A DNA stretch of 64,000 nucleotides from Gammaproteobacteria bacterium (lineage in GTDB: Bacteria > Pseudomonadota > Gammaproteobacteria > SZUA-152): the NCBI GenBank assembly GCA_021647505.1, contig JAKIUN010000001.1, positions 17,828 through 81,827 of the forward strand. The letters run 5' to 3'. Below, piece by piece: positions 18,417 through 56,241 of the stretch (position 1 is the stretch's first letter; each line of letters starts with the position of its first letter). Position numbers and translations under genes: made by a program. Under the pieces are notes generated by a model, which did no database searches, was not told the DNA's origin, and saw nothing but the letters and a program-made list of their open reading frames with translations.

Positions 18417-18606
18417 AACTCAAGCCCTGGGCCAACTGGCGCACCGACATTGTTCGTTATGACGAGATCACAGCCACCAATGGCTCACAGCAGGCCGCAG
18501 TGTTTCTCACTGAGCTGGAATTGAGGATCTAAATACCATATTCCATTTGTCATTCCGGCGTAAGCCGGAATCCAGAATGTGCGTGACATCAAACACTCTA
18601 ATCTTA

Positions 18607-18632
18607 CCCCCCCCCCCTCTCTCTCTCTCTTT
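18607..18632. repeat. Simple-sequence tract: poly-C (11) followed by (TC)6
   Basis: cccccccccctctctctctctct read directly; lies at the boundary of the ISAzo13-like remnant. Confidence 0.9.
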
Positions 18633-18643
18633 TCGCTACATTT

Positions 18644-20749: not shown

Positions 20750-20830
20750 TCACCTTGAAAGGGCTGGGGTTAGAGACCCCCGGTTACCCGATTAGCTGCT
20801 TTCACCTTTTGAATTCCGAAAAGATGAAAA

Positions 20831-21232
20831 TCAACCCTTGCTGACGGGCTCCGCCGTGGCCGGAGTCGTGGGTGTCGCATGCAGCGAAGCCAGCGGTGCA
20901 CGGCGCTCATCGGCAAAGTTTTCCAGGAAGGCCAGCGCACTGTTATAGACAATGGCGCCGGCATCGGCGGCCAGATCCAGGGCGCGATGGGCATCCGAAC
21001 GCAGGCGAGCCGGCAGGCCTTCAGTGCGGGCTTCTTGCAGCATTTTCTCAGAAAACACATTGTCGCGGATCTGCTCGGAGATACTGAGAGCCATCGCCAA
21101 TTCGCGTTCCAGCACATCCGCCGATGCCTCGCCCACGGCACGCGAGGCGCGAACCACGGCCCGAACCGAGCGGACAACGTCTTCCAGGCCGGTAGGTTGT
21201 TCATTGACGACAGACTCGGTGTGTGTGCTCAT
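20831..21232 (-). CDS. Hypothetical alpha-helical protein (phasin-like?)
   Basis: 133 aa, Ala/Arg/Glu-rich helical, Pro/Thr-rich tail; assignment weak. Confidence 0.3.
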   Translation of the reverse strand: MSTHTESVVNEQPTGLEDVVRSVRAVVRASRAVGEASADVLERELAMALSISEQIRDNVFSEKMLQEARTEGLPARLRSDAHRALDLAADAGAIVYNSALAFLENFADERRAPLASLHATPTTPATAEPVSKG

Positions 21233-33219: not shown

Positions 33220-34263
33220 TCAGCGCGGAAAGGCGACGAGGTGGTGGACGTCTGCGCGGATGGCAACCTGTTCGCCGATGGCGTGATCCAGGTGGCTAGG
33301 GAGCAGGGACAGCAGCTGGGTGCCGGTAGGCAGCTCCAAGGTATAGAGTGTCTCGGCTCCCTTGAAGGCCTTTTGTACGATGCGGGCCAACTGCTGGCCA
33401 CCGGGGTCGGGGACGATGTCATCGGGGCGCAGCAGCAGCTCCACGGGCGCGCCCGGCGGGCAGTCGTAGGCGCGATCGCCCTGTAGTACGCCGAGCTCGG
33501 TTTTCACGGTGTCGCGGTTCAGCATGGTGCCAGGGATAAACACGCCCTGGCCGATGAAGTCGGCGACGAAGCGATCTTGGGGTTCGTGGTAGAGATTGAA
33601 GGGAGTGTCCCACTGCAGGATGCGGCCCTGCGACATGACGCCGACCTGATCGCCGAGGGCGAAGGCCTCGTCCTGATGGTGAGTGACGAGAATGCCGGTG
33701 ATCCCCGCATTTTTGAGGATGTCGCGAACTTCCAGGCTGAGGCGTTCACGGGTGTCCACATCGAGATTGGAAAAGGGTTCGTCCATGAGGATGGCGCGCG
33801 GTTGACCGGCGAGGGCGCGGGCCAGGGCCACACGCTGTTGCTGGCCGCCGGACAGCTCGTGGGGATAACGTGCGACAAGATCCGACAGGCCAACCAGTTT
33901 GAGCATGCGGCTGATGGTTTCGCGCCGTTGGTGGCTCGACTGTTGGCGCAAGGCGAAGCCGACGTTGTCGCCGACGGTCATGTGTGGAAACAGGGCGTAG
34001 TCCTGAAAGACCATGCCCAGGCGGCGCTTTTCCGGGGCCAGGGTGAAGCCCGGGCGTGACAGGCTGACATCACCCATACGGATCTCGCCCTGGCTGATGG
34101 GTTCGAAGCCGGCGATGGCGCGTAGCGCCGTGGTCTTGCCGCAGCCGCTGGGGCCGAGCAGGCAGACCAGGCTGCCTTCGTTGACATGCAGGGACAGGCC
34201 GCTGACCACGATCTGTTCGCGGTAGCGGCACTCGATATTCTTGATTTGCAGTAAGGGTTGCAT
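33220..34263 (-). CDS. ABC transporter ATP-binding protein with C-terminal TOBE domain (Fe3+/polyamine/sulfate importer ATPase type), no cognate permease/SBP in window
   Basis: GPSGCGKTT, LSGGQQQRVALARA, ILMDEPFSNLD; downstream of argF on the same strand. Confidence 0.8.
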   Translation of the reverse strand: MQPLLQIKNIECRYREQIVVSGLSLHVNEGSLVCLLGPSGCGKTTALRAIAGFEPISQGEIRMGDVSLSRPGFTLAPEKRRLGMVFQDYALFPHMTVGDNVGFALRQQSSHQRRETISRMLKLVGLSDLVARYPHELSGGQQQRVALARALAGQPRAILMDEPFSNLDVDTRERLSLEVRDILKNAGITGILVTHHQDEAFALGDQVGVMSQGRILQWDTPFNLYHEPQDRFVADFIGQGVFIPGTMLNRDTVKTELGVLQGDRAYDCPPGAPVELLLRPDDIVPDPGGQQLARIVQKAFKGAETLYTLELPTGTQLLSLLPSHLDHAIGEQVAIRADVHHLVAFPR

Positions 34264-34308
34264 CGAGCGAATGATAACAGAGGCACGCTTGCCTGAGTCG
34301 GCTGCTCG

Positions 34309-35211
34309 TCAGCTGAGGAGGAATTCCAGCAGGGCCTTTTGTGAGTGCAGGCGGTTCTCGGCCTCGTCCCATACCACGCTCTGCGGGCCGTCGATGACCA
34401 CGGCCGACACTTCTTCGCCGCGATGGGCGGGCAGACAGTGCATGAACAGGGCGTCGGGCGCGGCCTGGGTCATCAGTTCGGCATCGACCTGATAGTCGGC
34501 GAAGGCCTTCTCACGCGCCGCCTGTTCCTCTTCCTGGCCCATACTTGACCAGACATCGGTGACCACCAGATCGGCACCGGCCACGGCCACGGCGGGGGTG
34601 GCGCAGAGGTGGGCGTGGTCTTCGCTGATCGCCAGTATCGCTGCGTCCGGCAGATAGCCCTCGGGGACGGCGATGCGCAGCTGGAAGTCGAACAGGCGCG
34701 CTGCGTTGATGTACGAATGGCACATGTTGTTACCGTCACCGATCCAGGCTGCGGTCTTGCCGGTCATGTCGCCGCGATGCTCGACCCAGGTCTGCATGTC
34801 GGCCAGTAGTTGGCAGGGATGGAACCGGTCGGTGAGGGCATTGATTACCGGCACACCGGAAAACTCGGCGAAGCGTTCGATCTTTTCGTGCTCGAAGGTG
34901 CGGATCATGATGGCATCCAGCATGCGGGACATGACGCGCGCCGAGTCCTCGATGGGTTCGCCGCGCCCCAGCTGGGTATCTCGTGGTGAGAGGAAGATGG
35001 CGTGGCCACCGAACTGTGCCATGCCGGCCTCGAAGGAGACGCGAGTGCGGGTAGAGGATTTCTCGAACACCATGCCCAACACCTTGTTCTTCAGCGGCTG
35101 ATAGATCTCGCCTCTGTGCTGCATTCGCTTGAGTTCGATGGCGCGCTGGATGAGGGCGCGCAGCTCGTCGCGGCTCAGGTCATTGAGGGTGAGGAAGTGT
35201 CGTACGGCCAC
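34309..35211 (-). CDS. argF: Ornithine carbamoyltransferase
   Basis: STRTR motif ([13 protein letters not shown]), HCLP ([11 protein letters not shown]). Confidence 0.9.
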
Positions 35212-35244
35212 GGTGGTGATCTCGGCAGGGTCGGGTGGAAACGT

Positions 35245-36414
35245 TCAGGCGAGGAAGCGGCGAATCAGGGCGGACAGGGTGTCCACCAGCAGCGTGGCTT
35301 CGTCGTCGCTCAGGATCAACGGCGGCAGCAGCCGCACCACCTGGCTGGCGATCACGTTGATCAACAGGCCTTCGTTCAGCGCCTGTTGCACCAGTTCGGC
35401 ACAGGGCCGATCCAGCTCGATGGCCAGCAGCAGGCCCTGGCCACGGATTTCGCGGATGCCTGCGACGCCGTCAAGGGCGGCGCGTAAGTCATCCAGCAGT
35501 TGCTCACCCAGGGCCTTGGCGCGCGCGGCAAGCTTATGTTCGTCCATGGTGTCGATGACTGCCAGCGCGGCGGCGCATACCAGTGGATTACCGCCGAAGG
35601 TGGAGCCGTGGTTGCCGGGCTGGAACAGTTCGGCGGCCTTGCCCTGTGCCAGGCAGGCGCCGATGGGTACGCCGTTGCCCAGCGCCTTGGCGCAGGTGAG
35701 CACATCGGGCCGCGCGCCGCTGTGCTGCCAGGCGAACCATTCACCGCTGCGGCACAGGCCGGTCTGGATCTCGTCCAGCATCATCAGCCAGCCGTTGTCG
35801 TCGCATAGCCGGCGGATGCCGGGCAGATAGTCGCCGCTGGGGATGCGAATGCCGTTTTCACCTTGTACCGGTTCCACCAGTACGGCGACGATGTCCTTAT
35901 TTTTGCTGAGTGCAGCGATGGCCTCAAGGTCGCCGTAGGGCACACGCAGAAAGCCGCTTACCAGCGGCTCGAAACCGGCCTGCACCTTGCGGTTGCCGGT
36001 AGCGCTCAGGGTGGCCAGGGTGCGGCCGTGGAAGCTGCCCTCCATGACCACGATAGCGGGGCGTTCGATGCCAAGGCCATGGCCGTGCAGGCGCGCCAGC
36101 TTGATAGCGGCCTCGTTGGCCTCAGCGCCGGAGTTGCCGAAGAACACTCGATCCATGCCGGCCACGGCGGTGAGCCGGTCGCCCAGGGCCTGCTGGCGCT
36201 GGATACCGTACAGATTGGAGGTGTGCACCAGTTGGCCGGCCTGTTCGCAGAGGGCGTGGGTGACGGCCGGGTGGGCATGGCCCAGACTACAGACGGCGAT
36301 ACCGCTGATGGCATCCAGGTAGCGTTTGCCATCCGTGTCCCATAACCAGGCGCCGTCGCCTTTCTCGAAGCTGATAGGGAGCCGTGCGTAGGTGGTCATC
36401 AATGTGTGAGTCAT
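35245..36414 (-). CDS. argD: Acetylornithine aminotransferase
   Basis: Start MTHTLMTTYARLPISFEKGDGAWLWD at ATG 36414; class-III PLP aminotransferase motifs. Confidence 0.85.
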   Translation of the reverse strand: MTHTLMTTYARLPISFEKGDGAWLWDTDGKRYLDAISGIAVCSLGHAHPAVTHALCEQAGQLVHTSNLYGIQRQQALGDRLTAVAGMDRVFFGNSGAEANEAAIKLARLHGHGLGIERPAIVVMEGSFHGRTLATLSATGNRKVQAGFEPLVSGFLRVPYGDLEAIAALSKNKDIVAVLVEPVQGENGIRIPSGDYLPGIRRLCDDNGWLMMLDEIQTGLCRSGEWFAWQHSGARPDVLTCAKALGNGVPIGACLAQGKAAELFQPGNHGSTFGGNPLVCAAALAVIDTMDEHKLAARAKALGEQLLDDLRAALDGVAGIREIRGQGLLLAIELDRPCAELVQQALNEGLLINVIASQVVRLLPPLILSDDEATLLVDTLSALIRRFLA

Positions 36415-36689
36415 GCTTTGATTTATCGTTGTCGACAGACAGGTTGTTAAAAAAGCCAAAAAACAAAAAGAAAAAGGCAGTCCCGATAGAGACTGCCGCC
36501 TTGTAGATCGGCTGATTCTATCGACTTATTAATTCCGAGGCAATAGCGGGCCTTTAGGTACTTTTTGAAGGATTATAGGTGTTGCGGGGTGCTTTCGGCG
36601 TCGCTGGGGTTGTCGTTGCCGAGTAGAATTTTGACCAGGTTTCAGCGCGATCGCCCGTGAGTTGATGCAAATGCAACCCAGGCAGATCC

Positions 36690-36790
36690 ATAATAATAGG
36701 GACAGAGAGAGAGGGGCACCAGCTACCCTGGGTACTTCCGTTATTCCAGCACCTACTCAACGGCCTTCCCCTTCTGTCCCCAATTATTCG
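36690..36790 (+). repeat. Repeat family B, copy 1 (shortened)
   Basis: taatagggacagagagagaggggcaccagctaccctgggtacttccgttattccagcacctactcaacggccttccccttctgtcc aligns with copies at 40176-40326 and 40896-41056. Confidence 0.8.
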
Positions 36791-36794
36791 CAAA

Positions 36795-37118
36795 TCAGCC
36801 GCGCCGCTTTTTGGTGTCGACTGAATTTGCCTTGTTAGCTGATTTATCTACAAGCTGACCATCTATGAATTTATGCAGAATGCTGGAAACAAGTGTTTGA
36901 TACGGCATACCTTCCATTAAGGCCTTTGCTTGCAGTGATCGAAGATCACGAGAAGACAAACGAATATTAATACGCGCATCTTTTTTGAATGTTGCCTTAG
37001 CAGCTTCCATATGCTGTTTAATCTGTCGTTTTGAATTTTTAGACTTCTTCATTTTTCCCGCTTCAAAAGCCTCTAGAATTTCTTCTTCTTCAGTGTCTAA
37101 TTTACTCATTTGCATCAC
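36795..37118 (-). CDS. brnA: BrnA-family antitoxin (ribbon-helix-helix)
   Basis: 107 aa; ..ARINIRLSSRDLRSLQAKALMEGMPYQTLVSSILHKFIDG.. matches the recalled BrnA C-terminal block; overlaps brnT by 17 nt, downstream of toxin as in brnTA operons. Confidence 0.75.
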   Translation of the reverse strand: MMQMSKLDTEEEEILEAFEAGKMKKSKNSKRQIKQHMEAAKATFKKDARINIRLSSRDLRSLQAKALMEGMPYQTLVSSILHKFIDGQLVDKSANKANSVDTKKRRG

Positions 37119-37383
37119 CTATGTACTGCTTAGTTGCTTTGCGACTTGGGATAATTGTTTTGAGAAATATTTCATCCTTTTCTTCAATATAGGGAACTAA
37201 ATATGCGTAATCTTCTATCACTACAACTGATATCTTTTGATTTGGGTAAAGCACCTTATTCGGGTGATCGTAGATATCAACTTCATTACCTAGTTGTATA
37301 TTAAGGACTATTTTTTCAAATGAGACATTCCTTTCTCTCTTGAGTGTTTCATTTTTCTCGGGGTTCCAAGCATATATTTTCAT
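37102..37383 (-). CDS. brnT: BrnT-family (DUF497) ribonuclease toxin
   Basis: 93 aa; W-NPEKNETLKRERNVSFEKI.. and ..IIPSRKATKQ recalled BrnT hallmarks. Confidence 0.75.
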   Translation of the reverse strand: MKIYAWNPEKNETLKRERNVSFEKIVLNIQLGNEVDIYDHPNKVLYPNQKISVVVIEDYAYLVPYIEEKDEIFLKTIIPSRKATKQYIGDANE

Positions 37384-37448
37384 TTACAGACCATAGCTTA
37401 AAGTGTGCATTTTGTCATCAAAAAGCTAACATATCACTCAAGTTTTGG

Positions 37449-37600
37449 AGGGACAATAGGGGGTAGGCCGGAATGGCACTTCCTTAAGGGCGTATTTCCA
37501 ATAAAAACAATGCCCTATGCCTGTCTCTACGTTAATGCTGATGGTTAGGGAAAGGCCCTTTCAACTGTATGTATAGCACTTTCAAGGTAACTACTCAGCC
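37449..37600 (+). repeat. Repeat family A, copy 1 (left TIR present, right end missing)
   Basis: gggacaataggg + ggtaggccggaatggcacttccttaagg...ttcaactgtatgtatagcactttcaagg; ~80% identical to 39943-40075. Confidence 0.8.
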
Positions 37601-37663
37601 CTCAGCCCCAAATTCAGATAAGCCATTGAATAACCGTCCGATTTTGGTATAAGCTTTGTTGCC

Positions 37664-37933
37664 ATGCAAACACCTCTCGACAAAAAAGCCCTCAGCGTAT
37701 TAGAAAAAAATGACTTGATTGCACTGCTGATGCAGCAAAACGAAATCCTCATGGTGCAGTGCGCTCGTATCGCTGGTCTGGAAAAGGAGATCGAGGAATT
37801 AAAGGGCAAACTGGCCAAGAACAGCCGTAATAGCAGTAAGCCGCCCTCCAGTGACGGTTATGACAAACCCAAGCCAAAAAGCCAGCGCAAGATCAGGGGG
37901 CTTGCGACCAGAACGGCGGTGGCCGGTGAATGA
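37664..37933 (+). pseudogene. IS66-family transposase (TnpC) N-terminal fragment
   Basis: 89 aa; coiled-coil then NSRNSSKPPSSDGYDKPKPKS block recalled from IS66 TnpC; terminates prematurely; no tnpA/tnpB nearby. Confidence 0.7.
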
Positions 37934-38351
37934 CTTTCCGGTCAGAAGCCGGGAGAGAAGGTGCCCTGTGTAGAAAGTCCAACCGCAAAAAAGGGCTGCA
38001 CGGGCGTCCACAGAAATGACAGCGGATACCTTCAGCCTCAGTGGTAGCAACGGATGCCGGGGCTTCTGACCGAGGGGGTAGTGGATCATTGAGGGGTGAT
38101 TCAGGAGAACCCTGATGCGTCACTTTCTTGCGGCGTGATCGGTAATGGTGTTGACGCTCAGCATGCTTGAAACGGCCGTTGCGAGTGTTCTGATAGCGTC
38201 TTCCGGCTGCATTTAGTGATGCTTTACGGGCTAAGTCTGCACAGGATTTACCGCAGTAGATATTGCCCCGGTCGCAGTGGCCGCAGATGATGACTTGGCA
38301 GTGACAACGGGCACAGTTGTAGAGACGGGCAGTGTTCTCCATCGGTGGCAA
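37893..38351 (-). CDS. Hypothetical Cys/His-rich zinc-ribbon-like protein (possibly IS-associated); coding status uncertain
   Basis: 152 aa; NCARCHCQVIICGHCDRGNIYCGKSC then basic R/K-rich stretch; overlaps 3' end of IS66 fragment on the opposite strand. Confidence 0.3.
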   Translation of the reverse strand: MPPMENTARLYNCARCHCQVIICGHCDRGNIYCGKSCADLARKASLNAAGRRYQNTRNGRFKHAERQHHYRSRRKKVTHQGSPESPLNDPLPPRSEAPASVATTEAEGIRCHFCGRPCSPFLRLDFLHRAPSLPASDRKVIHRPPPFWSQAP

Positions 38352-38779
38352 CTGCCGATGAGAACTGGCATGGATGGAAAATGGGGGTCATACTATCCAT
38401 GCTCGTGCTTTTGCACGGTCTTGGGGTGTGGTACCGGGGGACTGTTGAGGTCAAGATCCGGTGCCACACCTGTCTCAACGGCTCTCTCCATTTTCCCGAT
38501 TTCTTTACTTGATGTCACTCGTTGTAGCTGGCTGTTTCTTCTGACTTGCTATCCGCAGCTCTTTTGTCCGGTTACCGCTGTTCGCCAACTATGCTCGGGT
38601 TTTGACCGCCATCTACACCTGCGCTTTTGTTCAATCAGAACGAACAAATACAGGCTAAATATGAGCGCCATACCAGGATGTTATTTCGTGCACGTTCCTA
38701 AGAAAGTGATTCATAGGGTAAGTGCTTGGTCATCAGAAAATAATCTTGTTCTTGGGCAAGTAATGGAGAGCCCTATTCG

Positions 38780-39595
38780 TTAGGCCATTAGGCCTTTTTC
38801 TTCCATGAAATCATCAGGTACATCTGATGTTTTCCATCCTGTTATCGCGAAGTAGTACAGTGGCTCGCCTTCAATTGATAGTCTATGTCGGTAGCGTTCG
38901 ATGTAGTAAATATCAAGATATTTAGAGAAAATTAATTCCCTGATCATTTTTGAAAACCCTGAGTCATCGCTTCTATCAAAGAAGGTATCCTTAATATTAA
39001 AGGCCACCCACGCTTCGCTCTTGATTATATTAAAGGCCTCTAAAAATGCCTTCGTCGGAATATCGCCGAAACCTAGTGCGGCAACCGTTACCATGCAATC
39101 ACATTGCCATGCTGCTATTTCTTCCTTTTTATCCTTGTCTAGGATGGTGAAATCTTCAACATAGTATGCATCATAGACTCCTGGCCTATCGCGAATTGCT
39201 GCATCATAAGCTTCGGGTATTATGTCTACACCTATTAAACGAGAAACTCCATGCTTTTTTAGCTCTTCTCCCATCATGCCATTGCCTGCACCTAAATCTA
39301 ATATACGAAGCTCAGTAAAGTTATTTTGATACTGTTTTACCGCTGATTCGAGAATTGATGCTACTTTACCTGGAGATGTACATTTAAGGCGATCATAAAA
39401 TATTTGTTCATACAGACCTGGTACTTGGTAAATTTCATCGTAGTCGTGGAACCTTATTTTTCTCTTACCACCTGAACCTTGAAGGTAGAAATAGGCTTCG
39501 TCTTGATTGATGCTGGTTAATTCATCTTTCGGAAATTGTATTTGGTGTCTTATCGTCATTACTTTCCCAGTTTTGTTTGGATATATATTGGCCAT
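38780..39595 (-). CDS. Class I SAM-dependent methyltransferase
   Basis: Start MANIYPNKTGKVMTIRHQ at ATG 39595; motif I LDLGAGNGMMGEEL; low-GC. Confidence 0.7.
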   Translation of the reverse strand: MANIYPNKTGKVMTIRHQIQFPKDELTSINQDEAYFYLQGSGGKRKIRFHDYDEIYQVPGLYEQIFYDRLKCTSPGKVASILESAVKQYQNNFTELRILDLGAGNGMMGEELKKHGVSRLIGVDIIPEAYDAAIRDRPGVYDAYYVEDFTILDKDKKEEIAAWQCDCMVTVAALGFGDIPTKAFLEAFNIIKSEAWVAFNIKDTFFDRSDDSGFSKMIRELIFSKYLDIYYIERYRHRLSIEGEPLYYFAITGWKTSDVPDDFMEEKGLMA

Positions 39596-39942
39596 CACGG
39601 TAGGAATGCCGGTCACCCTTCCCCCCCTCCGCTCCCGCACGGATCCTCTTTATTGCCCAATAAGTTTACGCTAATACATTAGTTGCGACTACTTTCCTTG
39701 GATACTCAAATATTAATATTGAGAATCATTCCTGCAAAATCTTGGTGCTTTACTATAGTCTGAAGTCAATTTTATCACCTCTTTGAGCAGCAGAGGGGGT
39801 AGTTCTCGTGCAAATCGATACCACACACAGCAAATAGGGATGTGTGTTACTGTGGAGAACACACATTGGGTTTTCTTCCGTTGTTGGTTTGGTCGCCTTC
39901 CAGTTTAACCAGATAGAGTTAAAATGAGCATAAATTTTAACC

Positions 39943-40175
39943 GAGAGGGCAGGCCAGAATGGCACTTCCTCAGGGGTATATTTATAATAAGAACAATGTC
40001 TTATGCTTGAGTCTGAGTTAATGCTGCTGGCAAGGAAAAAGCCATTTCAACTGTATTTATAGCGTTTTCAAGATCAGTGATAGCAGCAGAAGATAAGAGT
40101 CTTAGCGCAAAATAAATGCAGACAGACTTGATTTATAAAGAAAATATCCTTAAGGAAGTGCCATTCGGGGCAGGC
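39943..40175. mobile_element. Repeat family A, copy 2: complete MITE-like unit with ~25-bp terminal inverted repeats (ggccagaatggcacttcctcagggg / ccccgaatggcacttccttaagg)
   Basis: Left TIR 39958-39985; right TIR inverted at 40148-40172; internal sequence ~80% identical to copy 1. Confidence 0.65.
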
Positions 40176-40326
40176 CGCGACAATAGGGTAGAGGGTAGAG
40201 TAGAGAGCAGGCGCCGGCTACCCCGGGAGTCTGTAGATGCTACTTCCGTTATTCCAGTGCCTACTCAACGGCCTTCCCCTTCTGTCCTCAGGGTCAGCTC
40301 CGCCAATTCGTTTACGAGGCTACATT
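40176..40326 (+). repeat. Repeat family B, copy 2 (full length), ending exactly at the SET-gene start codon
   Basis: cgacaatagggtagagggtagagtagagagcaggcgccggctacc...cttccgttattccagtgcctactcaacggccttccccttctgtcctcagggtcagctccgccaattcgtttacgaggctacatt|ATG. Confidence 0.85.
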
Positions 40327-40815
40327 ATGAAAGATGGGTTTGAGTTAAGGAATTCTTCTGGAAAGGGAGAAGGCATTTTCGCCACCAAATCATTTACGGT
40401 TGGTGACACAGTAATGATTGGCGTTATTAAAGAAGTGCTGAATGGGAATCATTCTCATGCTTCACAGGTGGGCGAAAATAAGTTTGTGCTTCACGATGGA
40501 TTAGTAACTAAGGTTAATCATTCCTGTGACCCAAATTGTGGTGTTAGAGAAAATGAAACTGGCGCACATAATTTTGTTGCAATAAAGGAGATTAGTGTTA
40601 ATGAAGAAATAACTTTTGATTATGCTATGCGAAACTATATTATCGACTACTTCCCGCAGAAGTGTATGTGTGGCTCTGAGGGATGTCGCGGTAGGATTAC
40701 AGGATGGAAAGATTTGCCAGATAAAAAGAAGAAAGCCTATGAAGGCTTTGAAGCTCCTTATCTGCTTGAGTTGGATGCTAAGAGTTCTTGCGCGAAAGTG
40801 GTAGGTTATACATAG
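40327..40815 (+). CDS. SET-domain protein (putative protein-lysine methyltransferase) with Cys-rich post-SET region
   Basis: Start MKDGFELRNSSGKGEGIFATKSF at ATG 40327; SET signature NHSCDPN, EITFDY, C-terminal CMCGSEGCRG. Confidence 0.75.
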   Translation: MKDGFELRNSSGKGEGIFATKSFTVGDTVMIGVIKEVLNGNHSHASQVGENKFVLHDGLVTKVNHSCDPNCGVRENETGAHNFVAIKEISVNEEITFDYAMRNYIIDYFPQKCMCGSEGCRGRITGWKDLPDKKKKAYEGFEAPYLLELDAKSSCAKVVGYT

Positions 40816-40895
40816 TGAAAAAACCTAACGAATAAAGTTTCGTGTTGAGTTAAGTTCAGAAATTTGTGGTCAGAATGGATGCTGTGAAATTAGTT

Positions 40896-41056
40896 GGGAC
40901 AATAGGGAACAGGCCACGACAATAGGCTAGAGTAGAGAGCAGGCACCGGCTACCTTAGGCGTCTGTAGATGCTACTTTCGTTATTCCAGCACCTACCTCA
41001 ACGGCCTTCCCCTTCTGTCCGCAGGGTCAGCTCCTCCAATTTGTTTGCGAGGCTAC
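40896..41056 (+). repeat. Repeat family B, copy 3 (no ORF follows; ends ...gaggctacatatagg)
   Basis: gggacaatagggaacaggccacgacaataggctagagtagagagcaggcaccggctacc...ttattccagcacctacctcaacggccttccccttctgtccgcagggtcagctcctccaatttgtttgcgaggctacat. Confidence 0.85.
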
Positions 41057-41300
41057 ATATAGGTTCACTTACTTGCCGGAAGAAAGCTCATGACCCTGTG
41101 TTACCACAGCGCCGCTTCCTCATACTACCGAGGCGTACGGACAATTCCTCGGACGGGACTTTAACCCGCTAGACTTACTGCTATTACTGCGAACGGACAG
41201 GCCACGGTTTTTAGAAAACCCAGGCTGTTAAATCGTGCTTTGTCCCCGATCGCCGGGTAGAACCATCTCCCAATATCGAGTTGTTTGATCTTTAGGCTGG

Positions 41301-41981
41301 TCATGGTGACGTTTTTAATTGCTCTTTGAGTTCGGCGACTTCCGCTTCCAGCCGACTGACCCTCTGTGCCAACTCGGACACACTGCCCCGCTCTGAAGTC
41401 GCGACGTCAATCGCAGACTGTGCTTGGCTTGCGTGTGCTTCAATGTCAATGGAACCGGAGAACATGTGCATGTACTCTGAGTCCTTGCGTCCGGGCGTGC
41501 GCGGGAGCTTCACTACCAACGGATTGCCTTCCCACTCGATCAGCCCGGCAAGGGTATCCACGACGGCAGAATTGTCGGTGAAGGCATGCAGGCGACCACT
41601 GCGCGATTTTAGCTCCCCAGGCGTTTGAGGGCCGCGCAGCAATAGCAAGCAGACAATAGCAAACTGAGATGGGTTAAACTGATATTCGCCAAAGTGTGTA
41701 CTGCAAAAGCGTTGTGTGAATTTCTCAACCCCACTCTTGAAATTCTCCTCAGCGCGTATGAGATGTTTGGCCTGCAAGTCGCGGGCGGTACGTTGGACTA
41801 TGCCTGGCTCCAGGGACATTAAAGGATCGCGGCTGGATTTCTGGTTGCAGGCGTTGGTAAGAGCATTAAGCGTCAATGGATATTGATCCGGCGTGACGAC
41901 AGATTTCTCCATCAGACAACCGATTACGCGGGCTTCGTTGGCGGAAAAATTCAACAGCACAGTTGGATCCTCATTAAACAT
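41301..41981 (-). CDS. yceH: YceH-family protein (DUF480/UPF0502)
   Basis: 226 aa; LNFSANEARVIGCLMEKSVVTPDQYPLTLNALTNACNQKSSRDPLMSL recalled as closely matching E. coli YceH. Confidence 0.8.
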   Translation of the reverse strand: MFNEDPTVLLNFSANEARVIGCLMEKSVVTPDQYPLTLNALTNACNQKSSRDPLMSLEPGIVQRTARDLQAKHLIRAEENFKSGVEKFTQRFCSTHFGEYQFNPSQFAIVCLLLLRGPQTPGELKSRSGRLHAFTDNSAVVDTLAGLIEWEGNPLVVKLPRTPGRKDSEYMHMFSGSIDIEAHASQAQSAIDVATSERGSVSELAQRVSRLEAEVAELKEQLKTSP

Positions 41982-41988
41982 ATTCCAA

Positions 41989-42258
41989 TTAACTCATAAC
42001 CCCTATGAATTTAGCCCCGCCATTTTTATTGCGGTTGCCATTTGGCCCGCGCCCTCCCGTATTTTGTCGTATAAGCCTAACCTTTTTAGCTATTAAGCCT
42101 TCCTTGGCAGGATGACACTCAAACTCGACGGTTGTTCCAGTCTTTAAATACTGGCAACGAACAAGGTCTGATTTACGAATCATTATGTCTGGACCAGAAC
42201 CATTATCGAGAAACCCATACTCTTTATCTTTGAGCCACTTTTTAACTACCGCTTGCAT
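41989..42258 (-). CDS. Cold-shock-domain protein with Gly/Arg/Asn-rich C-terminal tail
   Basis: 89 aa; KWLKDKEYGFLDNGSGPDIMIRKSDL; good SD ttgaggtgaaatATG. Confidence 0.6.
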   Translation of the reverse strand: MQAVVKKWLKDKEYGFLDNGSGPDIMIRKSDLVRCQYLKTGTTVEFECHPAKEGLIAKKVRLIRQNTGGRGPNGNRNKNGGAKFIGVMS

Positions 42259-42460
42259 ATTTCACCTCAATTTATAAACGCATATTCCACGTGGGCATGA
42301 AAAGCCTGCCCACCCTATCAGGTTTTTTGTGGGGAGCCATCAGAGTCTGAACTACTACGAATTATACGAATTCCTCTATTCGAAAGTGAGCAGGATTATT
42401 GGAAAAATGTTGGAAAAAGGTAAGACTTGGTGTGGTGGGCCTTTTGGTTTTTTTGGAGGA

Positions 42461-42649
42461 TTATGGGCATTGCAGGGCTTCGCCGAGGGTGGTGTCGGGG
42501 AGGATAATGACACCACGGCTGCAGTGCAGGGAACCGGGTTTGAGGCCGGCGCTGACCACCTTGAGGTCGGCGTGTACCAGTAGGTCGATGATGGTTACGG
42601 CCTCCAGTTCTTCACAGCCTTGGGCTAGGGGGACAAGAACGCGCGCCAT
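42461..42649 (-). pseudogene. DJ-1/PfpI (YajL/ThiJ-like) N-terminal fragment, truncated at the boundary of the low-GC insertion
   Basis: 62 aa MARVLVPLAQGCEELEAVTIIDLLVHADLKVVSAGL.. then stop, followed immediately by AT-rich DNA. Confidence 0.65.
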
Positions 42650-43449
42650 GTGCGGAACCTCTGCATGTGTTTATCGAGAAGCTGCGAGACGGGCAGGATG
42701 TCGATGCCTTTAGCGGCCAGTAGCGGTAGTTCTTGCTCCAGTACCTCAAGGGTCTCGGGATAGGGGTGGCCGATGGCCAGGGCGATGCCGTGTTCACGGG
42801 CTAGACGCACGGTGCGACGCAGTTCGGCGCGGATTTTTGCGGGGTCGCGGTCGCTGTCGAGGAACACGTCGCGGCGGATGTTGGGCACCCAGTTTTCATT
42901 GGCGGCCTGTATCGCCACGCTGGTCTTGGTGGTGTAACTATCGACGAAGTAGAGCGCGTCGTGCTCACCCAGTTCCTGCATCAGCCAGTGCATGTGGCCG
43001 GGGTGTTGGGTGAGCAGGCTGCCCATGTGGTTGTTGATGCCGGCGAGGTGGGGCACAGCGGCGATGTCGTCACGCAGTTGGTGCAGGAACTGTTGCCGGG
43101 TCATGTCCAGGGTCAGGCCGCCGGGGCCGAGACGCTTGCGCTCCAAGGCCTCCATGGGCAGGTGCATCATGACCTCCTTGTTGAGGCTGTTGGCGAGGTT
43201 GGCCAGTTCGCGGGCGTGGGGGGTGTGCGGCAGGAAGGCGTAGGTGATGGCCCAGGGCAGGCGGATGGCGCGCAGGTCGCGATCACGGAGGTTGCCGAGG
43301 TCATCGATGATGATACTGATGGCCGGTCGATCCGGTTTGGCGATAGAGGGGAGAGGGTCTGCCGTTGCTGGCTGCCCAAACAGCATCCCCGTCAGCAGCA
43401 GAGCTGACAGGGATAGTGTCTTTATCAGGTTGAGTGGACGGGTTTTCAT
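42625..43449 (-). CDS. yibQ: Divergent polysaccharide deacetylase family protein (YibQ-like)
   Basis: 274 aa, signal peptide, PAISIIIDDLG..; downstream of ctpA/envC/gpmI as in enterobacterial synteny. Confidence 0.75.
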   Translation of the reverse strand: MKTRPLNLIKTLSLSALLLTGMLFGQPATADPLPSIAKPDRPAISIIIDDLGNLRDRDLRAIRLPWAITYAFLPHTPHARELANLANSLNKEVMMHLPMEALERKRLGPGGLTLDMTRQQFLHQLRDDIAAVPHLAGINNHMGSLLTQHPGHMHWLMQELGEHDALYFVDSYTTKTSVAIQAANENWVPNIRRDVFLDSDRDPAKIRAELRRTVRLAREHGIALAIGHPYPETLEVLEQELPLLAAKGIDILPVSQLLDKHMQRFRTWRAFLSP

Positions 43450-43487
43450 TTCTCTGGGTTGATCGATCCGCGCCTCTTGACGGAGTG

Positions 43488-47842: not shown

Positions 47843-48413
47843 GGATTCGTATCATCTTCTTTAGCTTGCGCGCGGCTCGCGCAGGAGCGCGGAATTTTAA
47901 ACGATTTCCGCCGTGCCTGGAAAGCATGAAGAGTGATCCTGCGGGTGGATCAGATGATAAAAAACCTTTTGATTCTTCGCCCAAATGTTTTATGAGGCTC
48001 TGCGCAACCTTTCTTGCTTATTGATTTTAAACGAAATATTCTCTTGGTGGCCTGTCGTTTTCGAGAGCGCCTGTCTCGCGAGCGGGGCGAATGTATGGGT
48101 GTAGTACAAGGCTTCTGTATCTTGTTCACGCCCCTCACCTATGCCCGTGTAGGCGATATCTTGATTCGTAGGGCGAATGAAAACTTTGAGCGTAACCCTT
48201 TGCCTTGCGCGATTTTTATGCAAATGTATGAAATAGTCGGATTAGTGTTTCGGATTATTCTGAATTAACATAGTCATATATTACTGTATTTTACTTTGGT
48301 AATATTTCTGCGGGGCGGTGTATGTCCGCTAGCGTTAGTAATTCGGGCATCCTTGTGCTTCGTCAATATCGCCGTGACGGAGACGAGTGACGGCCAAATC
48401 AGGGTGTTGTGCT

Positions 48414-48725
48414 ATGAGTGACTCGGAACATTTAATTACTCGCGATGAAGATATAGAGCGCGCCTCGCGTTCTATCAAGGCCATGTCGCATCCCTTGCGG
48501 CTGAAGATTCTCTGTGCCCTGGGCGGCAAGGAGGTTAGTGTGCAGGACATCGTCGGCATGGTGGGCACCTCGCAGAGCAATATATCCCAACATCTGGCCA
48601 TTCTGCGCGACAAGGGTATTCTGGTGTCGCGCAAGGACGCCAACCGTGTCTATTACCGTATCGGTGATGCGCGAACCCTGCGCCTCATCAGTATGATGCG
48701 CGAGGTTTTTTGTTCCGCCGATTAG
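48414..48725 (+). CDS. ArsR/SmtB-family transcriptional regulator
   Basis: Start MSDSEHLI at ATG 48414; HTH ..VSVQDIVGMVGTSQSNISQHLAILRDKGILVSRKDANRVYY. Confidence 0.8.
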   Translation: MSDSEHLITRDEDIERASRSIKAMSHPLRLKILCALGGKEVSVQDIVGMVGTSQSNISQHLAILRDKGILVSRKDANRVYYRIGDARTLRLISMMREVFCSAD

Positions 48726-48728
48726 GAT

Positions 48729-48984
48729 CTGTTGACGCTCTATTTTCATCACTGTTGCGTCTGAAAAAGCGCCAATCAAGGCGCGAGGAGAGAAGTTTGG
48801 TGACTGCAAATAAACGACGAGCAACGCCGAGTGGCGCTTTTTCAGACGCAACCCGCAGGGCTGGGCCGCTTTTTCCGCCCTGCGGCGTTGTCAGTCGCTT
48901 GTGTAGAACAACTACACAGCACTCCTTCCGCCTTGCAGGACAAAAAAAGCGGCTCCAGCAGTGGGGAAAATAGAGCGTCAACAG
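48729..48984. repeat. Densely nested palindromic element (~255 bp): outer 19-bp perfect IR ctgttgacgctctattttc/gaaaatagagcgtcaacag; inner 20-bp perfect IR gttgcgtctgaaaaagcgcc/ggcgctttttcagacgcaac; further hairpins ccgcagggc..gccctgcgg and tgtgtag..ctacaca
   Basis: All arms verified as exact reverse complements; lies between arsR and the rhodanese-grx gene; the overlapping 87-aa ORFs on both strands are mirror artefacts of the palindrome. Confidence 0.8.
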
Positions 48985-49122
48985 ACCCTAATGCCAACTG
49001 GCCCCTGGTACTTCGGCAAGGCAACAACTCTTTAACCCGCGATACCACGCTGATGGCTTGAGTTTCCCGCCTTTCCGCTATATCGTCCGCCCACTTTCCA
49101 CTCAAACGATCCCAAAAAAACT

Positions 49123-53712: not shown

Positions 53713-54168
53713 GTGCCTTCCAAAATCTTTATTCCCCCGGTTCAACTGCTGATTACGGCGATGTTGATGCTGCTGATTCAGTCATCCGTACCGTTTGGAC
53801 AAATCGGTGGTGCGTGGGTCTTGCCCTTATCAGCCGTGCTGGGCATCGCCGGCACGGGCATCATTCTGATGAGCGGTGTGCTTTTTCTCCGGGCTAAAAC
53901 CACCGTGCATCCGACGCATCCGGAGAAGACTTCAGCATTGGTCATCAGCGGAGTTTATCAAATATCAAGAAATCCTATGTATCTGGGTTTGCTGCTGATC
54001 CTGCTCGCATGGGGCGTCTTCCTGGGGAGCCTGCCCGCGTTCGTGCCGATCCTGCTGTTCATCGGCACCATCACAAAATATCAAATCGTTTTTGAAGAGC
54101 AGGCGCTGGAGAATAACTTTGGCGACAGTTACCGGCGGTACAAGTCGAAGGTTCGGCGGTGGATTTAA
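53713..54168 (+). CDS. Isoprenylcysteine carboxyl methyltransferase (ICMT/PEMT) family membrane protein
   Basis: 151 aa, 4 TM, RNPMYLG motif. Confidence 0.65.
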   Translation: MPSKIFIPPVQLLITAMLMLLIQSSVPFGQIGGAWVLPLSAVLGIAGTGIILMSGVLFLRAKTTVHPTHPEKTSALVISGVYQISRNPMYLGLLLILLAWGVFLGSLPAFVPILLFIGTITKYQIVFEEQALENNFGDSYRRYKSKVRRWI

Positions 54169-54196
54169 CGGGCTGTTAGTTTCAGGAAGGATTGAA

Positions 54197-54814
54197 ATGC
54201 GTACTAAGGGAAAAATTACATCGTGGAATGACGATAAAGAATATGGCTTTATTTCGCCTCTTTCCGGAGGAAAGCAACTATTTGTTCATATTAATGCTTT
54301 CAGTAATCGAAACCGCCGGCCAGAGATTGGTCAGGTCGTCACATACGGAATTTCTTCCGATAAGCAGGGGCGCCCGTGTGCCATAACAGCGACTTTAGCT
54401 GGCGATAGGATTCAACAGAATACAAAGAAAAATAGTAGTGGTATTTCAGTTGTTCTAGCCATAACATTTATCAGTATCGTGGCAATTTTCGTTTTAGTAG
54501 ATAAATTGCCTCCCGTTATTTTTGCTGCTTACTTCGTGCTCAGTATGCTCACGTACATTGTTTATGCCGTAGATAAGTCAGCAGCAAAAAATGAGACATG
54601 GAGGACACCGGAAAGCACCTTGCATCTTTTTGCGTTGGCTGGAGGATGGCCAGGCGCACTAGTGGCCCAACAGAGATTGCGCCATAAGTCCAAGAAGGAA
54701 GCTTTTCGTTTTGTTTTTTGGCTGACGGTATTATTGAACTGCGGGGTATTCATTTGGCTGTTTAGCGCCACTGGGTCGGCACTACTGCATGCACTAATTC
54801 AAAGCGCAGTTTAA
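54197..54814 (+). CDS. Cold-shock domain fused to DUF1294 membrane domain
   Basis: Start MRTKGKITSWNDDKEYGFISP at ATG 54197 after aggaagg SD; C-terminal TM helices. Confidence 0.65.
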   Translation: MRTKGKITSWNDDKEYGFISPLSGGKQLFVHINAFSNRNRRPEIGQVVTYGISSDKQGRPCAITATLAGDRIQQNTKKNSSGISVVLAITFISIVAIFVLVDKLPPVIFAAYFVLSMLTYIVYAVDKSAAKNETWRTPESTLHLFALAGGWPGALVAQQRLRHKSKKEAFRFVFWLTVLLNCGVFIWLFSATGSALLHALIQSAV

Positions 54815-55041
54815 GGGCTAATCAGGTAAAGGGAATAGCTTGCCCTCCACGCGTAGGGAGTAATAACTAAAGCACACCGCACCGGATGACTATCATCATG
54901 GCACCACCGGTCTCTCTCTTCCAGAGACGAGCCTTGCTTTACTTAGAGGTGAAAAGAATTTTTTATCGCGCCTGTTAGCTGCAATGCCAAGTTAGCTATC
55001 TTTGTGTTGCAGGAAACATTTTTAAATCAGAGGTTATAAAA

Positions 55042-56241
55042 ATGACAAAAAAATATTTAGAAATGCCTGACGAGAAGGGATACTTCGGTGAGTATGGTGG
55101 ACAGATCATTCCACCCCCGTTGATTGATGTCATGAATGAGATCAATGACGCCTATGACAAGGTCACGCAGACCGAGTCCTTTCAACAGGAGTTGCAACAG
55201 CTTTATGCGGATTATGTAGGTCGTCCCAGCCCCATCTATTTTGCCGAGCGATTAACCAATAAGGTGGGCGGTGCGCGTATCTTTTTCAAGCGCGAGGATT
55301 TGAATCACACTGGTGCGCATAAAATCAACCATTGCCTTGGCGAGGCTCTGCTGGCAAGACACATGGGAAAAACCAAGGTGCTGGCGGAGACGGGGGCGGG
55401 TCAGCACGGTGTGGCCCTGGCCACGGCCTGTGCACTGATGGGTATCGATTGTGAAATCCACATGGGTGAAATCGATATCGAGAAAGAACACCCCAATGTC
55501 ACCAAGATGAAGATTCTTGGCTGCAAGCTCGTCCCCGTATCGCGCGGCACCCGAACACTCAAGGATGCGGTGGACAGTGCCTTTGAGGAATATTTGAAAG
55601 ATCCGGTCAACTATTTCTACGCTATTGGTTCGGTGGTTGGCCCCCACCCATTCCCCAAGATCGTGCGTGATTTCCAATGCGTCGTCGGCAAGGAGGCCAG
55701 GGAGCAGTTTCTGGCGAAAGAGAATAAATTGCCTGATGTGTTGATTGCCTGTATTGGCGGCGGCTCCAATGCCATCGGTTTGTTTACCGCATTTCTGGAC
55801 GATGAATCCGTCAAGATGATTGGCATCGAGCCGGCGGGGAAGGGGCTTGGTACGGGTGAGCATGCGGCTACCCTGACGCTGGGAACCAAAGGGGCTCTTC
55901 ACGGCTATGAGTGTTACAACATTCAAGACGATGAGGGCAATCCTTTGCCTGTTTACTCCATCGCTTCGGGTCTGGATTACCCCGGCGTTGGGCCACAGCA
56001 TTGTTATCTGAAGGATATCAAGCGTGTTGTCTATGAATCCATTGATGACGAGGAGTGCCTGGATGCCTTTATGCAGCTTTCCCGTCTGGAAGGTATTATT
56101 CCCGCATTAGAGAGCGCGCATGCCATTGCCCATGCAATGAAAATTGCAAAAGATATGTCCAGCGATGAAACAATACTCGTTAATCTTTCGGGTCGTGGCG
56201 ACAAAGATGCAGATTTTGTGGCAGAGCATTTGTCGCTTTGA
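55042..56241 (+). CDS. trpB: Tryptophan synthase beta subunit (orphan; no trpA in window)
   Basis: 399 aa; [17 protein letters not shown] (PLP lysine), GGGSNAIG; lower GC than neighbours. Confidence 0.8.

Follow-up and report, generated by a model that had tools for sequence, protein, structure and literature searches.

An AT-rich islet with mobile-element remnants replaces the middle of a DJ-1/PfpI gene in a gammaproteobacterium

The AT-rich segment and the DJ-1/PfpI locus

Between argD (Aminotran_3, Pfam E 1e-114) and yibQ, the 64-kb stretch of gammaproteobacterial DNA analyzed here, hereafter called the window, contains a block of small genes and repeated modules (table 1) that is clearly distinct in composition from its surroundings. 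GC content is 0.62-0.68 at positions 34000-36400, falls to 0.34-0.56 at about 36450-42470 and rises again to 0.58-0.65 beyond; with limits set by homology, the AT-rich segment covers positions 36,669 (±10) to 42,471, that is 5.8 kb, and has a GC of 0.451 between flanks of 0.605 and 0.585. The top three tetranucleotide outliers of the 64 kb are the 3-kb windows of this island. Both profiles thus set apart the low-GC insertion proposed in an earlier interpretation made from the letters only (hereafter the sequence-only reading), while its limits, 36450-42460, hold for the low-GC block and not for the exact ends. Every ORF listed in that reading is present. No direct repeats flank the island.

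Beside yibQ lies a truncated DJ-1 ORF of 62 codons (42461-42649), said previously to stop exactly where the AT-rich DNA starts; the ORF is as described but homology already ends at codon 60, the final two codons and the stop being contributed by the insert. The remnant of this gene had been recognized at the right edge alone, a view that has to be amended because its decayed 3′ part also survives on the argD side, followed by the native terminator hairpin (a terminator-like site at 36476-36497). What is left of DJ-1 amounts to the 5′ 60 codons plus ~95 nt of the 3′ end, with ~260 bp replaced.

Related genomes show the undisturbed arrangement. In L004, which is 88% identical, the order is yibQ, a DJ-1 ORF of 183 aa (taken from the ORF listing without translation) and argD, with a GC of 0.60-0.68 throughout the locus and no GC drop; the window is collinear with it at 42472-43456 and 34000-36639, and 307 bp of L004 are absent between these blocks. 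The three genes are also contiguous in L010, which has the same blastn layout, and an intact 183-aa orthologue is present in L009, the full sequence of which includes the AICAAP motif region missing from the window copy. Only the last ~75 nt of DJ-1 are left in L006, L007 and L008. The junction is identical in the independent assemblies L001, L002 and L003 (contigs L002 and L003 end inside the REP-like palindrome of table 1) and therefore is not an assembly artefact. Consequently, the insertion or replacement event suggested by the truncated gene is confirmed: foreign AT-rich DNA has taken the place of the middle of DJ-1. The csp-like and YceH genes sit within the inserted segment, and a right boundary to the left of yceH, as had been considered, is not supported; L004 and L006-L008 lack both genes at this locus, and no match to either was found in L010.

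Table 1. Features of the AT-rich segment and its junctions (window positions)
Feature	Position	Strand	Details
DJ-1/PfpI, decayed 3′ remnant	36574..36668	-	Last ~30 codons, small deletions; blastn to L004 11286-11352, pairwise alignment
Left junction zone	36661..36700	-	Alignment and sequence reading
Repeat B1, 5′-truncated mini group II intron	36701..36782	-	Domain I 3′ part and domain VI tail
BrnA/CopG-like antitoxin	36795-37118	-	PF12441 E 7.4e-5, below Pfam gathering; NCBIfam BrnA E 7e-4
BrnT-like toxin	37102-37383	-	PF04365 E 1.6e-5, below Pfam gathering
9-mer GGGTAGGCC	37461..37469	.	Putative left target-site duplication copy of the IS66-derived unit; compare empty site 40898-40926
IS66-family left end	37470..37890	+	Repeat A1 37458-37586; ~76 tnpC codons, ORF 37664-37933
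IS21-family 5′ remnant	37888..38617	-	First gene, Cys-rich ORF of 149/152 aa, 37893-38351; istA and istB missing
Class-I SAM methyltransferase	38780..39559	-	Pfam Methyltransf_11/23
MITE, 212 bp (39956-40167), with flanking 9-mers	39947..40176	+	Repeat A2, ~60 bp, right inverted repeat
Repeat B2, 5′-truncated mini-intron	40195..40325	-	Domain I 3′ half and domain VI tail; RF02005 24 bits, E 6e-4
SET-domain methyltransferase, intact	40327..40815	+	PF00856 E 8e-11
attC-like remnant of SET cassette	40823..40899	+	ACCTAAC ... GTTGGGA, 77 nt; only outer boxes pair
3′ flank of B3, CCTATTGTC-GTGGCCTGTTCC-CTATTGTC	40898..40926	-	Unoccupied copy of the IS66-like element/MITE site next to B2
Repeat B3, mini group II intron, complete (279 nt)	40927..41205	-	RF02003 49.5 bits (gathering 49) at 41039-41171
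5′ flank of long B copies, 45 nt	41206..41250	-	Hairpin GGGTTTT-CT-AAAAACC 41206-41221 directly before the intron
DUF480/YceH, intact	41301-41981	-	Pfam E 9e-56
csp-like CSD gene, intact	41989-42258	-	Pfam
REP-like palindrome of host lineage	42278..42343	.	Same at window 9093-9105, L006, L010
AT-rich filler	42344..42471	.	Reaches right junction 42471/42472; L030 sequence differs here
DJ-1 5′ remnant	42472..42649	-	60 codons homologous; PF01965 positions 2-57 of 165, E 4e-9; alignment to L004

The modules between the genes

Besides one Walker-motif match, the two modules A and B account for all direct repeats of 40 nt or longer in the window. Repeat B, present in three minus-strand copies within 4.5 kb, is an internally deleted group II intron of IIC-like type, in which domain I runs straight into the tip of domain VI (the last ~17-19 nt) and domains II-V as well as the reverse transcriptase (RT) ORF are absent. 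Alignment with L032 and L033 indicates that B3 starts with GUGGC..., contains the whole of domain I and continues with the end of domain VI; the full intron L033, which encodes an RT/maturase (TIGR04416, 396 bits), has a domain I with 80-82% identity to the B core and terminates with ...CCTGCTCTCTACTCTAC. The exact run to the 3′ end of this full intron is 19 nt in B2 and 16 nt in B3. Among solved structures, the RT of L033 is closest to those of group IIC (6ar1, 195 bits, and 7uim, 190, vs. 159 for IIB and 130 for IIA). The diverged B1 has a 13-nt internal deletion in domain I and abuts the brnA stop codon, just as B2 abuts the start codon of SET. No match to domain V-VI (RF00029) was found at E<=1 in 36300-42700; without domain V and RT, repeat B therefore cannot splice or move alone. 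The deletion junction is common to B2, B3 and both copies of L030, a related strain considered below, and a separate derivative combining domain I and domain VI is found at a different locus, L032. The shared junction could in principle reflect mobilization in trans or selection on the RNA.

The 45-nt flank preceding B3 forms, together with 40896-40926, an imperfect palindrome of ~80 nt. This flank is 87% identical between B3 and the long L030 copy, the intron itself 85%, and sharing it at intron-like divergence is thus as expected for DNA duplication. Copy counts refer to the 64-kb window and a few contigs, the public scan having used one exact 21-mer; this B core was present on five contigs of the metagenome scan, three of which represent the present locus. 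Within the window and the public scans, the modules do not behave as ubiquitous REP elements.

Repeat B resembles group IIC and IIC-attC introns (PMC3001079, citing Robart et al. 2007; Leon & Roy 2009) in that its full-length relative L033 combines a small domain I with an RT lacking an endonuclease domain, and in having a copy directly after a hairpin/palindrome and antisense to the cassette gene SET. It differs from them in that the window contains no functional copy and attC boxes are missing from the host palindrome. Fragmented bacterial group II introns retained as remnants, such as the RmInt1-related FRE652 of Sinorhizobium (PMC4181065), are likewise inactive intergenic pieces that persist and supply sequence for rearrangements and for differences among strains. 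However, RmInt1-type decay has been described as loss of the 3′ terminus (PMC4181065), whereas repeat B has lost the middle (domains II-V and ORF) and kept both termini, with one deletion derivative found three times within 4.5 kb.

Repeat A comprises two direct copies (129 nt each, 80% identical to one another) and an inverted arm; it corresponds to the left end shared by an IS66-family element and its 212-bp MITE. A tnpC fragment (DUF6444, E 3e-13) follows 78 nt downstream of A1, the left end has 46-bp matches of 87-89% to annotated IS66 transposase genes, and its terminal inverted repeat of 22 nt is 95% complementary with 40148-40169. The MITE is flanked by the 9-mers GGGCAGGCC at 39947-39955 and 40168-40176; such 9-mers border both the MITE and the whole IS66 unit, with an empty site at B3, and GACAATAG at 37452-37459 constitutes the distal stretch of the 3′ flank of the intron. 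There are three copies of the 9-mer GGG(C/T)AGGCC, which one simple insertion does not explain. The left junction may be read in similar terms, with a decayed 19-mer (36661-36679) similar to the end of the IS66 element and MITE, a 12-mer equivalent to the target (36680-36691) and a possible 3′ exon CCTATTATT (36692-36700). The TnpC N-terminal domain beside the left end, the terminal inverted repeats and the short target duplication are all features of the IS66 family and its MITEs, and the 212-bp form is internally deleted with both ends kept, as in IS66 MITE derivatives. Target duplications of the family usually measure 8 bp; here the duplication is of 9 bp, with one mismatch and three copies, and the transposase is reduced to ~76 codons.

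The IS66 remnant is cut off at the start of another one. The Cys-rich ORF, for which neither Pfam nor NCBIfam has a model, and the preceding 270 bp have 73-78% DNA identity to the left part of elements in L034, L036, L037 and L038, in which the ORF is followed by IstA (NF033546, 249 bits) and IstB (NF038214, 215 bits). It thus represents the first gene of an IS21-family element that has been truncated, belonging to a subgroup that differs from other members in this extra conserved gene of 149 aa; compared with IS21 elements, the window copy has its istA and istB deleted. The sequence-only reading had noted the Cys-rich ORF and the IS66 TnpC fragment correctly, missing the IS21 membership of the former and the nature of the modules as group II intron remnants, IS66 ends and MITE.

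Cargo genes and the cassette pool

The overlapping BrnT-like and BrnA-like ORFs (36795..37383) are both intact; the toxin-antitoxin pair previously recognized is thus present as ORFs, with Pfam scores below gathering for both. The supposed methyltransferase pair consists instead of two genes on opposite strands, separated by the MITE and an intron remnant. The SAM methyltransferase has the family length of 259 aa (the open frame reaches a GTG at 39640) and 6976 homologues across taxa, mostly of 259 aa and 80-93% identical; DNA homology is limited to 39579-38780, and a GCCTAAC box overlaps the stop codon. SET shows 83-88% DNA identity across phyla, confined to 40316-40828, and elsewhere is an integron-type gene cassette, whose limits and adjoining canonical attC sites can be seen in L045, L046 and L047. 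The window has lost the 5′ boundary box of SET (G|TTAGGT), which is still present in L030. These similarities suggest that at least SET comes from the integron gene cassette pool; the methyltransferase family probably circulates as integron cassettes too.

Origin and remodelling of the islet

We favour as likely the view of a horizontally acquired, now immobile mosaic islet that has been remade by recombination among element remnants. A different interpretation would see in the island a present or recent cassette array without integrase, of the kind called CALIN or SALIN (attC sites or cassettes lacking an integron integrase; PMC7923331), in which an IntI acting in trans could still excise and reorder genes and the modules would be atypical attC sites broken by group IIC-attC introns. 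SET and probably the methyltransferase, stranded far from an integrase together with a toxin-antitoxin pair, fit such a description: the SET cassette boundaries are G|TTAGGT and ACCTAAC, L045 has one attC site of 73 nt (z -5.7) and another of 88 nt, the 64 kb contain just two exact copies of the 11-mer CCTAACGAATA, one at the 3′ end of SET and one at that of the methyltransferase, and the 77-nt attC-like stretch follows SET, to which the intron remnants are antisense (cf. PMC3001079). Moreover, chromosomal arrays typically hold toxin-antitoxin genes, and L034 has an IS21-like element in an array rich in such genes with a group II RT. Nevertheless, we judge this interpretation unlikely. A strict scan gave no R″/R′ pair with paired stem, and a relaxed scan, which does pick up the control attC sites of L045, L046 and L050, gave no convincing candidate in the island; the fold of the SET attC-like stretch is not better than those of its shuffles (z -0.4 here and -1.4 for L030), the methyltransferase candidates likewise, and the ~80-nt palindrome has no conserved boxes. 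Genes lie in both orientations, and the repeats between them are intron and IS remnants. In agreement with the earlier statements that the modules are not attC sites and that no integrase is present, neither an intact attC nor an integrase was found in the window, and the tyrosine-recombinase box II motif is missing from every frame of the 64 kb.

If the mini-introns were instead non-autonomous retroelements, mobilized in trans by a full-length relative such as L033, recombination between post-hairpin copies could join and shuffle genes without integrase, a natural instance of the route of cassette formation proposed for IIC-attC introns. B3 does have both intron ends, the junction-retaining copies share one deletion junction, L032 is an independent derivative, and the minus strand runs from yceH through hairpin and intron to the attC-like stretch of SET, read as its bottom strand, the geometry required by the model (PMC3001079 discussion). 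Yet domain V, required for reverse splicing, is absent, the 45-nt flank of the long copies has diverged as much as the intron, the long/short differences between window and L030 are plain deletions at orthologous sites and the 21-mer core was present on only five contigs of the metagenome scan, three being this locus, all of which makes this possibility very improbable. It is harder still to believe that the segment is ancestral and was lost in relatives, or that a metagenomic bin was mis-assembled: the sequence does come from a MAG and L006, L007 and L008 show that deletions happen at the DJ-1 spot, but a split gene cannot regenerate the intact DJ-1 of L004 and L009, GC and tetranucleotides deviate strongly, and the same junctions recur in assemblies of different samples, from both NCBI and Logan.

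For the mosaic islet, the replacement, what each remnant is and how the strains differ can be read directly, whereas we infer the order of events. The islet took the place of ~260 bp in the middle of DJ-1/PfpI, at the locus flanked by yibQ and argD, probably in an ancestor shared by this strain and L030, and its cargo consists of small intact genes (BrnT/BrnA-like, SAM methyltransferase, SET, YceH and CSD protein) separated by the wrecks of three mobile elements. The intron lies directly behind the small hairpin inside the ~80-nt palindrome, into which the IS66-family element and its MITE would also have inserted with 9-bp duplication; an IS21-family element may then have entered, or adjoined, the IS66 transposase gene, both becoming truncated. 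The B copies probably arose by duplication or gene conversion of the composite module and not by retro-mobility. In L030, with flanks 96% identical, the island is shorter and rearranged: 37587-39946 is missing, only the MITE occupies the orthologous site, the long and short B forms are swapped and the right junction differs. Present-day change would proceed through recombination, homologous or illegitimate, between copies of A and B, while the toxin-antitoxin pair may aid retention. The islet represents an ordinary, common kind of genomic scar, with the repeated mini-intron as its modest curiosity.

An island within the DJ-1 gene

The base composition of the window changes abruptly beside argD, from a GC of 0.62-0.68 before position 36400 to 0.34-0.56 across ~36450-42470, with recovery thereafter. 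Within limits set by homology (island in the table), GC is 0.451 vs 0.605 and 0.585 in the flanks, and the three most deviant 3-kb tetranucleotide windows of the 64 kb lie inside; the low-GC stretch noted by the sequence-only reading is confirmed by GC and tetranucleotide profiling. Pfam matches agree with the genes listed by that reading for argD, the N-terminal fragment of IS66 TnpC (DUF6444), the SAM methyltransferase, SET, DUF480/YceH and CSD. Matches to BrnT (25.6 bits, cut-off 34.5) and BrnA (23.9 bits, cut-off 28) fall below the curated cut-offs; these BrnT-like and BrnA/CopG-like genes are small and overlapping, arranged as in a type II toxin-antitoxin pair. All cargo ORFs are intact and all mobile-element genes in the island are destroyed. 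A scan of the island for promoters and terminators gave counts at chance level.

The sequence-only reading had also proposed an insertion or replacement truncating DJ-1, and the relatives bear this out. Scanning species-representative genomes for YibQ gave 24 loci. In L004, an 88% identical relative, yibQ, a 183-aa DJ-1 ORF, argD and argF follow in order at a GC of 0.60-0.68 throughout, and blastn gives L010 the same yibQ-DJ-1-argD layout, in both cases with no island; L009 also has an intact DJ-1 of 183 aa, including the AICAAP region missing from the window. Window segments 43456-42472 and 36639-34000 are collinear with L004; in the interval, 5.8 kb take the place of 307 bp of L004. Base-level alignment sets the right junction at 42471/42472 and identifies a decayed 3' end of DJ-1 kept beside argD; the DJ-1/PfpI fragment, of 62 codons, covers only positions 2-57 of the 165 in the Pfam profile. 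We reject mis-assembly because the junction is reproduced in three independent assemblies (contigs L001, L002 and L003).

In L006, L007 and L008, yibQ and argD are separated by 39 bp and DJ-1 is gone except for its last ~75 nt; the spot is therefore unstable in this lineage. The deletion end (L006 10829-10900, also in L007 and L008) lies within ~25 nt of the left junction of the island, a possible shared fragile point. Decayed sequence resembling an IS66 or MITE end abuts the same junction, hinting that an IS-mediated deletion may have made it. The claim that an integrase is missing stands as well, no tyrosine-recombinase box II motif being present in any frame of the 64-kb window. No direct repeats flank the island at its junctions, and tRNAs, the targets considered for a genomic island, lie 20 kb away. 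Other low-GC patches (0.38-0.51) occur at 3001-5000, 18001-21000, 48001-49000 and 54001-56000 of the window, those at 18-21 kb and 2-5 kb being tetranucleotide outliers too; given these patches, the source genome may hold several small foreign islets.

Features of the island and its edges (window coordinates)
Feature	Coordinates	Strand	Remarks
Island	36669-42471		homology-set limits
Decayed DJ-1 3' end	36574 to ~36668		two small deletions
IS66/MITE-end-like sequence	36661-36679		decayed
B1	36782-36701	minus	5' part lost, abuts gene directly
A1	37458-37586		78 nt upstream of truncated IS66-type tnpC
Variant 9-mer GGGTAGGCC	37461-37469		precedes A1
Segment differing from L030	37587-39946
IS21-like homology	38617-37888		stops just past Cys-rich ORF
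11-mer CCTAACGAATA	38774-38784	minus	3' end of a methyltransferase gene
11-mer CCTAACGAATA	40824-40834	plus	3' end of a methyltransferase gene
9-mer GGGCAGGCC	39947-39955 and 40168-40176		both sides of MITE
MITE	39956-40167		212 bp, A2 plus inverted arm
Terminal inverted repeat	40148-40169		95% complementary to first 22 nt of A1
B2	40325-40195	minus	5' part lost, abuts gene directly
Weaker domain I match	40217-40325		RF02005
Outer-box pairing after SET	40823-40899		fold z -0.4
B3 3' flank	40898-40926		read as empty target site
B3	41205-40927	minus	279 nt, both ends kept
Domain I match in B3 region	41039-41171	minus	RF02003, 49.5 bits (cut-off 49)
REP-like palindrome	42278-42343		island right edge

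Remnants of a group II intron and of insertion sequences

Repeats A and B, noted from the sequence beforehand, are real: the window has no other direct repeats of 40 nt or more, one nucleotide-binding motif excepted. The possibility that they are REPs or other ubiquitous repeats scattered over the genome is rejected, since within the 64 kb both are confined to the island, and the REP-like palindrome at its right edge (...AGGGTGGGCAGGCTTTTCATGCCCACGTGG), which belongs to the host lineage, is a different sequence from either. This palindrome recurs at window 9093-9105, L006 16322-16388 and L010 5296-5328; the Logan contigs L002 and L003 end within it, which suggests many genomic copies.

Rfam recognizes group II intron domain I in B3 and, more weakly, around B2. 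One exact 21-mer of the B core was then found in five metagenome contigs, three of which represent the same locus (L029, L030 and L031) and the others L032 and L033, and in none of the viral contigs; distant blastn of B3 against plasmids matched nothing. L033 carries the full-length intron, with a 472-aa RT/maturase (RVT_1 + GIIM; TIGR04416, 396 bits) and a domain V-VI match; its 3' exon (L033 1-45) consists of tandem CCCATGGTGTGTGAC repeats. In the alignment of all copies, B tracks domain I to its end and then jumps to ...GCCTGCTCTCTACTCTAC, the extreme 3' end of L033, with which B2 shares 19 and B3 16 consecutive identical bases. B is therefore an intron with an internal deletion, domain I being joined to the tip of domain VI. 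Domain VI in the island is reduced to these last 16-19 nt, no RT/maturase ORF is found in the island, and there is no domain V (RF00029 has no match at E<=1 in 36300-42700), so that none of the B copies can splice. In another sample, a member of this intron family (L032 2040-2320; RF02005, 65 bits) was independently reduced to domain I plus domain VI, at a different junction, and adjoins a bacterial RNase P RNA gene.

Searched against the PDB, the RT of L033 is closest to group IIC enzymes, and a small hairpin immediately precedes B3, the 5' end of which (GUGGC) is placed to ±5 nt. Since IIC introns sit immediately after hairpins (PMC3001079), we infer that the repeat B family is IIC-like. B3 and the long copy of L030, a 96% identical strain with a shorter island, have in common 45 nt of upstream and ~30 nt of downstream flank, which together form an ~80-nt imperfect palindrome. 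The flanks are about as diverged as the intron (87% vs 85% identity), which fits a composite module copied by duplication or by gene conversion better than independent retro-insertions.

Repeat A derives from IS66. Of TnpC only the N-terminal ~76 codons remain (DUF6444), the DDE domain being absent, and tblastn of the fragment against plasmids matched nothing. Taking out the element and one 9-mer leaves sequence that runs collinear with the B3 3' flank, which is why that flank is read as an empty target site; an earlier interpretation, in which GACAATAG was duplicated over 8 bp and B3 bore a 12-nt 'footprint', gave way on the same ground to a target duplication of the 9-mer.

The Cys-rich ORF matches no Pfam or NCBIfam family, and its identity comes from genomic context. 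It has 532 homologues of ~149 aa, mostly on short contigs; in all but one of the longer contexts examined, an IS21-family transposase and its helper ATPase come next, the exception being contig L037, where a family is assigned to the transposase-like gene but not to the gene behind it. In contig L038 the two score 249 bits (NF033546) and 215 bits (NF038214). IstA and IstB are present in L034, L036 and L038 and both are missing from the window, where DNA homology to these elements shows that the left ~730 bp of such an IS21-family element remain, directly abutting the truncated IS66 gene. The elements of L034 (6001-8961), L036 and L038 (5687-8761) have four genes, in the order conserved 149-aa Cys-rich ORF, IstA, IstB and a 67-71-aa ORF. 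L034 1-12450 looks like a chromosomal cassette array, rich in toxin-antitoxin genes (DUF4160/DUF2442, ParE/RelB, HepT/MNT), with a group II intron RT and the IS21-like element.

SET, the methyltransferase and the search for attC

SET has >1400 homologues in very different bacteria, with 72-86% protein identity among the 120 listed. L041-L044, a Desulfolithobacter chromosome among them, have copies whose DNA is 83-88% identical to it, and homology ends within ~12 nt of the gene; this identity across phyla, ending at cassette boundaries, indicates recent and wide horizontal spread. The cassette is found at the same DNA identity across distant phyla in L043 (4990-5483; Desulfolithobacter dissulfuricans AP024233), L041, L044 and L045. 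Upstream it is bounded by G|TTAGGTTTTT and downstream by ACCTAAC; tested as a cassette, it shows homology between hosts that runs up to G|TTRRRY and takes in an attC with RYYYAAC as its start, and in the window the 5' box is deleted. Two canonical attC sites flank SET in L045, and the same features are seen in L046 and L047. Such boundaries and flanking sites mark SET as an integron-type gene cassette. The methyltransferase behaves similarly: the family length is 259 aa, members from different taxa are 80-93% identical, and homology does not extend beyond the gene. L050 has a 120-nt ACCTAAA...GTTAGGT stretch. The 11-mer CCTAACGAATA occurs exactly twice in the 64 kb, and the same two sites are returned when one mismatch is allowed; at that setting two or more matches, wherever placed, turned up in 8 of 100 shuffles.

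The sequence-only reading considered the repeat modules cassette-like and unlike attC, and the scans agree on the latter point. A strict R''/R' scan of 36400-42500 found no attC, while a relaxed scan that recovers the control sites of L045, L046 and L050 found in the island only an outer-box pairing after SET; the candidate stretches after SET and after the methyltransferase fold no better than shuffles. The ~80-nt palindrome around the intron was considered as an attC and rejected, for it lacks the conserved boxes and its fold z-scores are only -1.6 and -2.7. A hairpin after SET in L044 was left uncounted, since the T-run behind it may make it a terminator.

Ongoing change and interpretation of the locus

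The island of L030 has a different right junction, and the long and short forms of B are exchanged with respect to the window by simple deletions. L030 has an extra 290 bp, containing a second REP, which the window appears to have lost between two AATATGCG repeats; at L030 5734-6195 the DJ-1 remnant is 43 nt shorter and ~100 nt of filler differ. At the position orthologous to the MITE, L030 has the MITE only, and the segment by which it differs from the window could reflect either a deletion in L030 by recombination of A1 with A2 or a gain in the window lineage.

The most economical reading is that the island is an immobile mosaic, whose repeats are substrates for deletion and recombination; intron remnants are known to persist and to promote rearrangement (PMC4181065). 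A more elaborate possibility, which we consider improbable, is that group IIC introns, which sit beside palindromes, antisense to cassettes (PMC3001079), shuffled genes here without an integrase and that the locus preserves intermediates of the process. Intron copies placed after hairpins, at a gene end and at an attC-like site, would recombine together and join unrelated genes to recombination sites; the introns would then decay into domain I plus domain VI 'mini-introns', persisting as portable homology. Compared with intron remnants, IIC introns, cassettes without integrase (for which PMC7923331 uses a term), IS66 MITEs and IS21 elements, every component of the locus is of a type already known. 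Only one feature is unusual, an intron that has lost its middle and kept both termini, present in three copies and with an independent counterpart in L032. We give little credence to the locus being a record of introns joining genes to recombination sites.

Several annotations are to be corrected accordingly: DJ-1 should be listed as a pseudogene, the Cys-rich ORF as a gene of an insertion sequence, the 'repeats' as remnants of an intron and of IS elements, and yceH and csp at this locus as imported copies. The island is a compact example of how small foreign genes survive whole while the elements that carried or surrounded them decay, and of how a locus is still being remodelled, between 96% identical strains, by the intron and IS pieces left in it. 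As a suggestion only, a repeated mini-intron and integron-type cassettes stranded next to IIC-like intron remnants bear on how cassettes assemble; if the intron-mediated joining were true, the locus would be evidence from nature for the part that IIC-attC introns are proposed to play in the making of integron cassettes.
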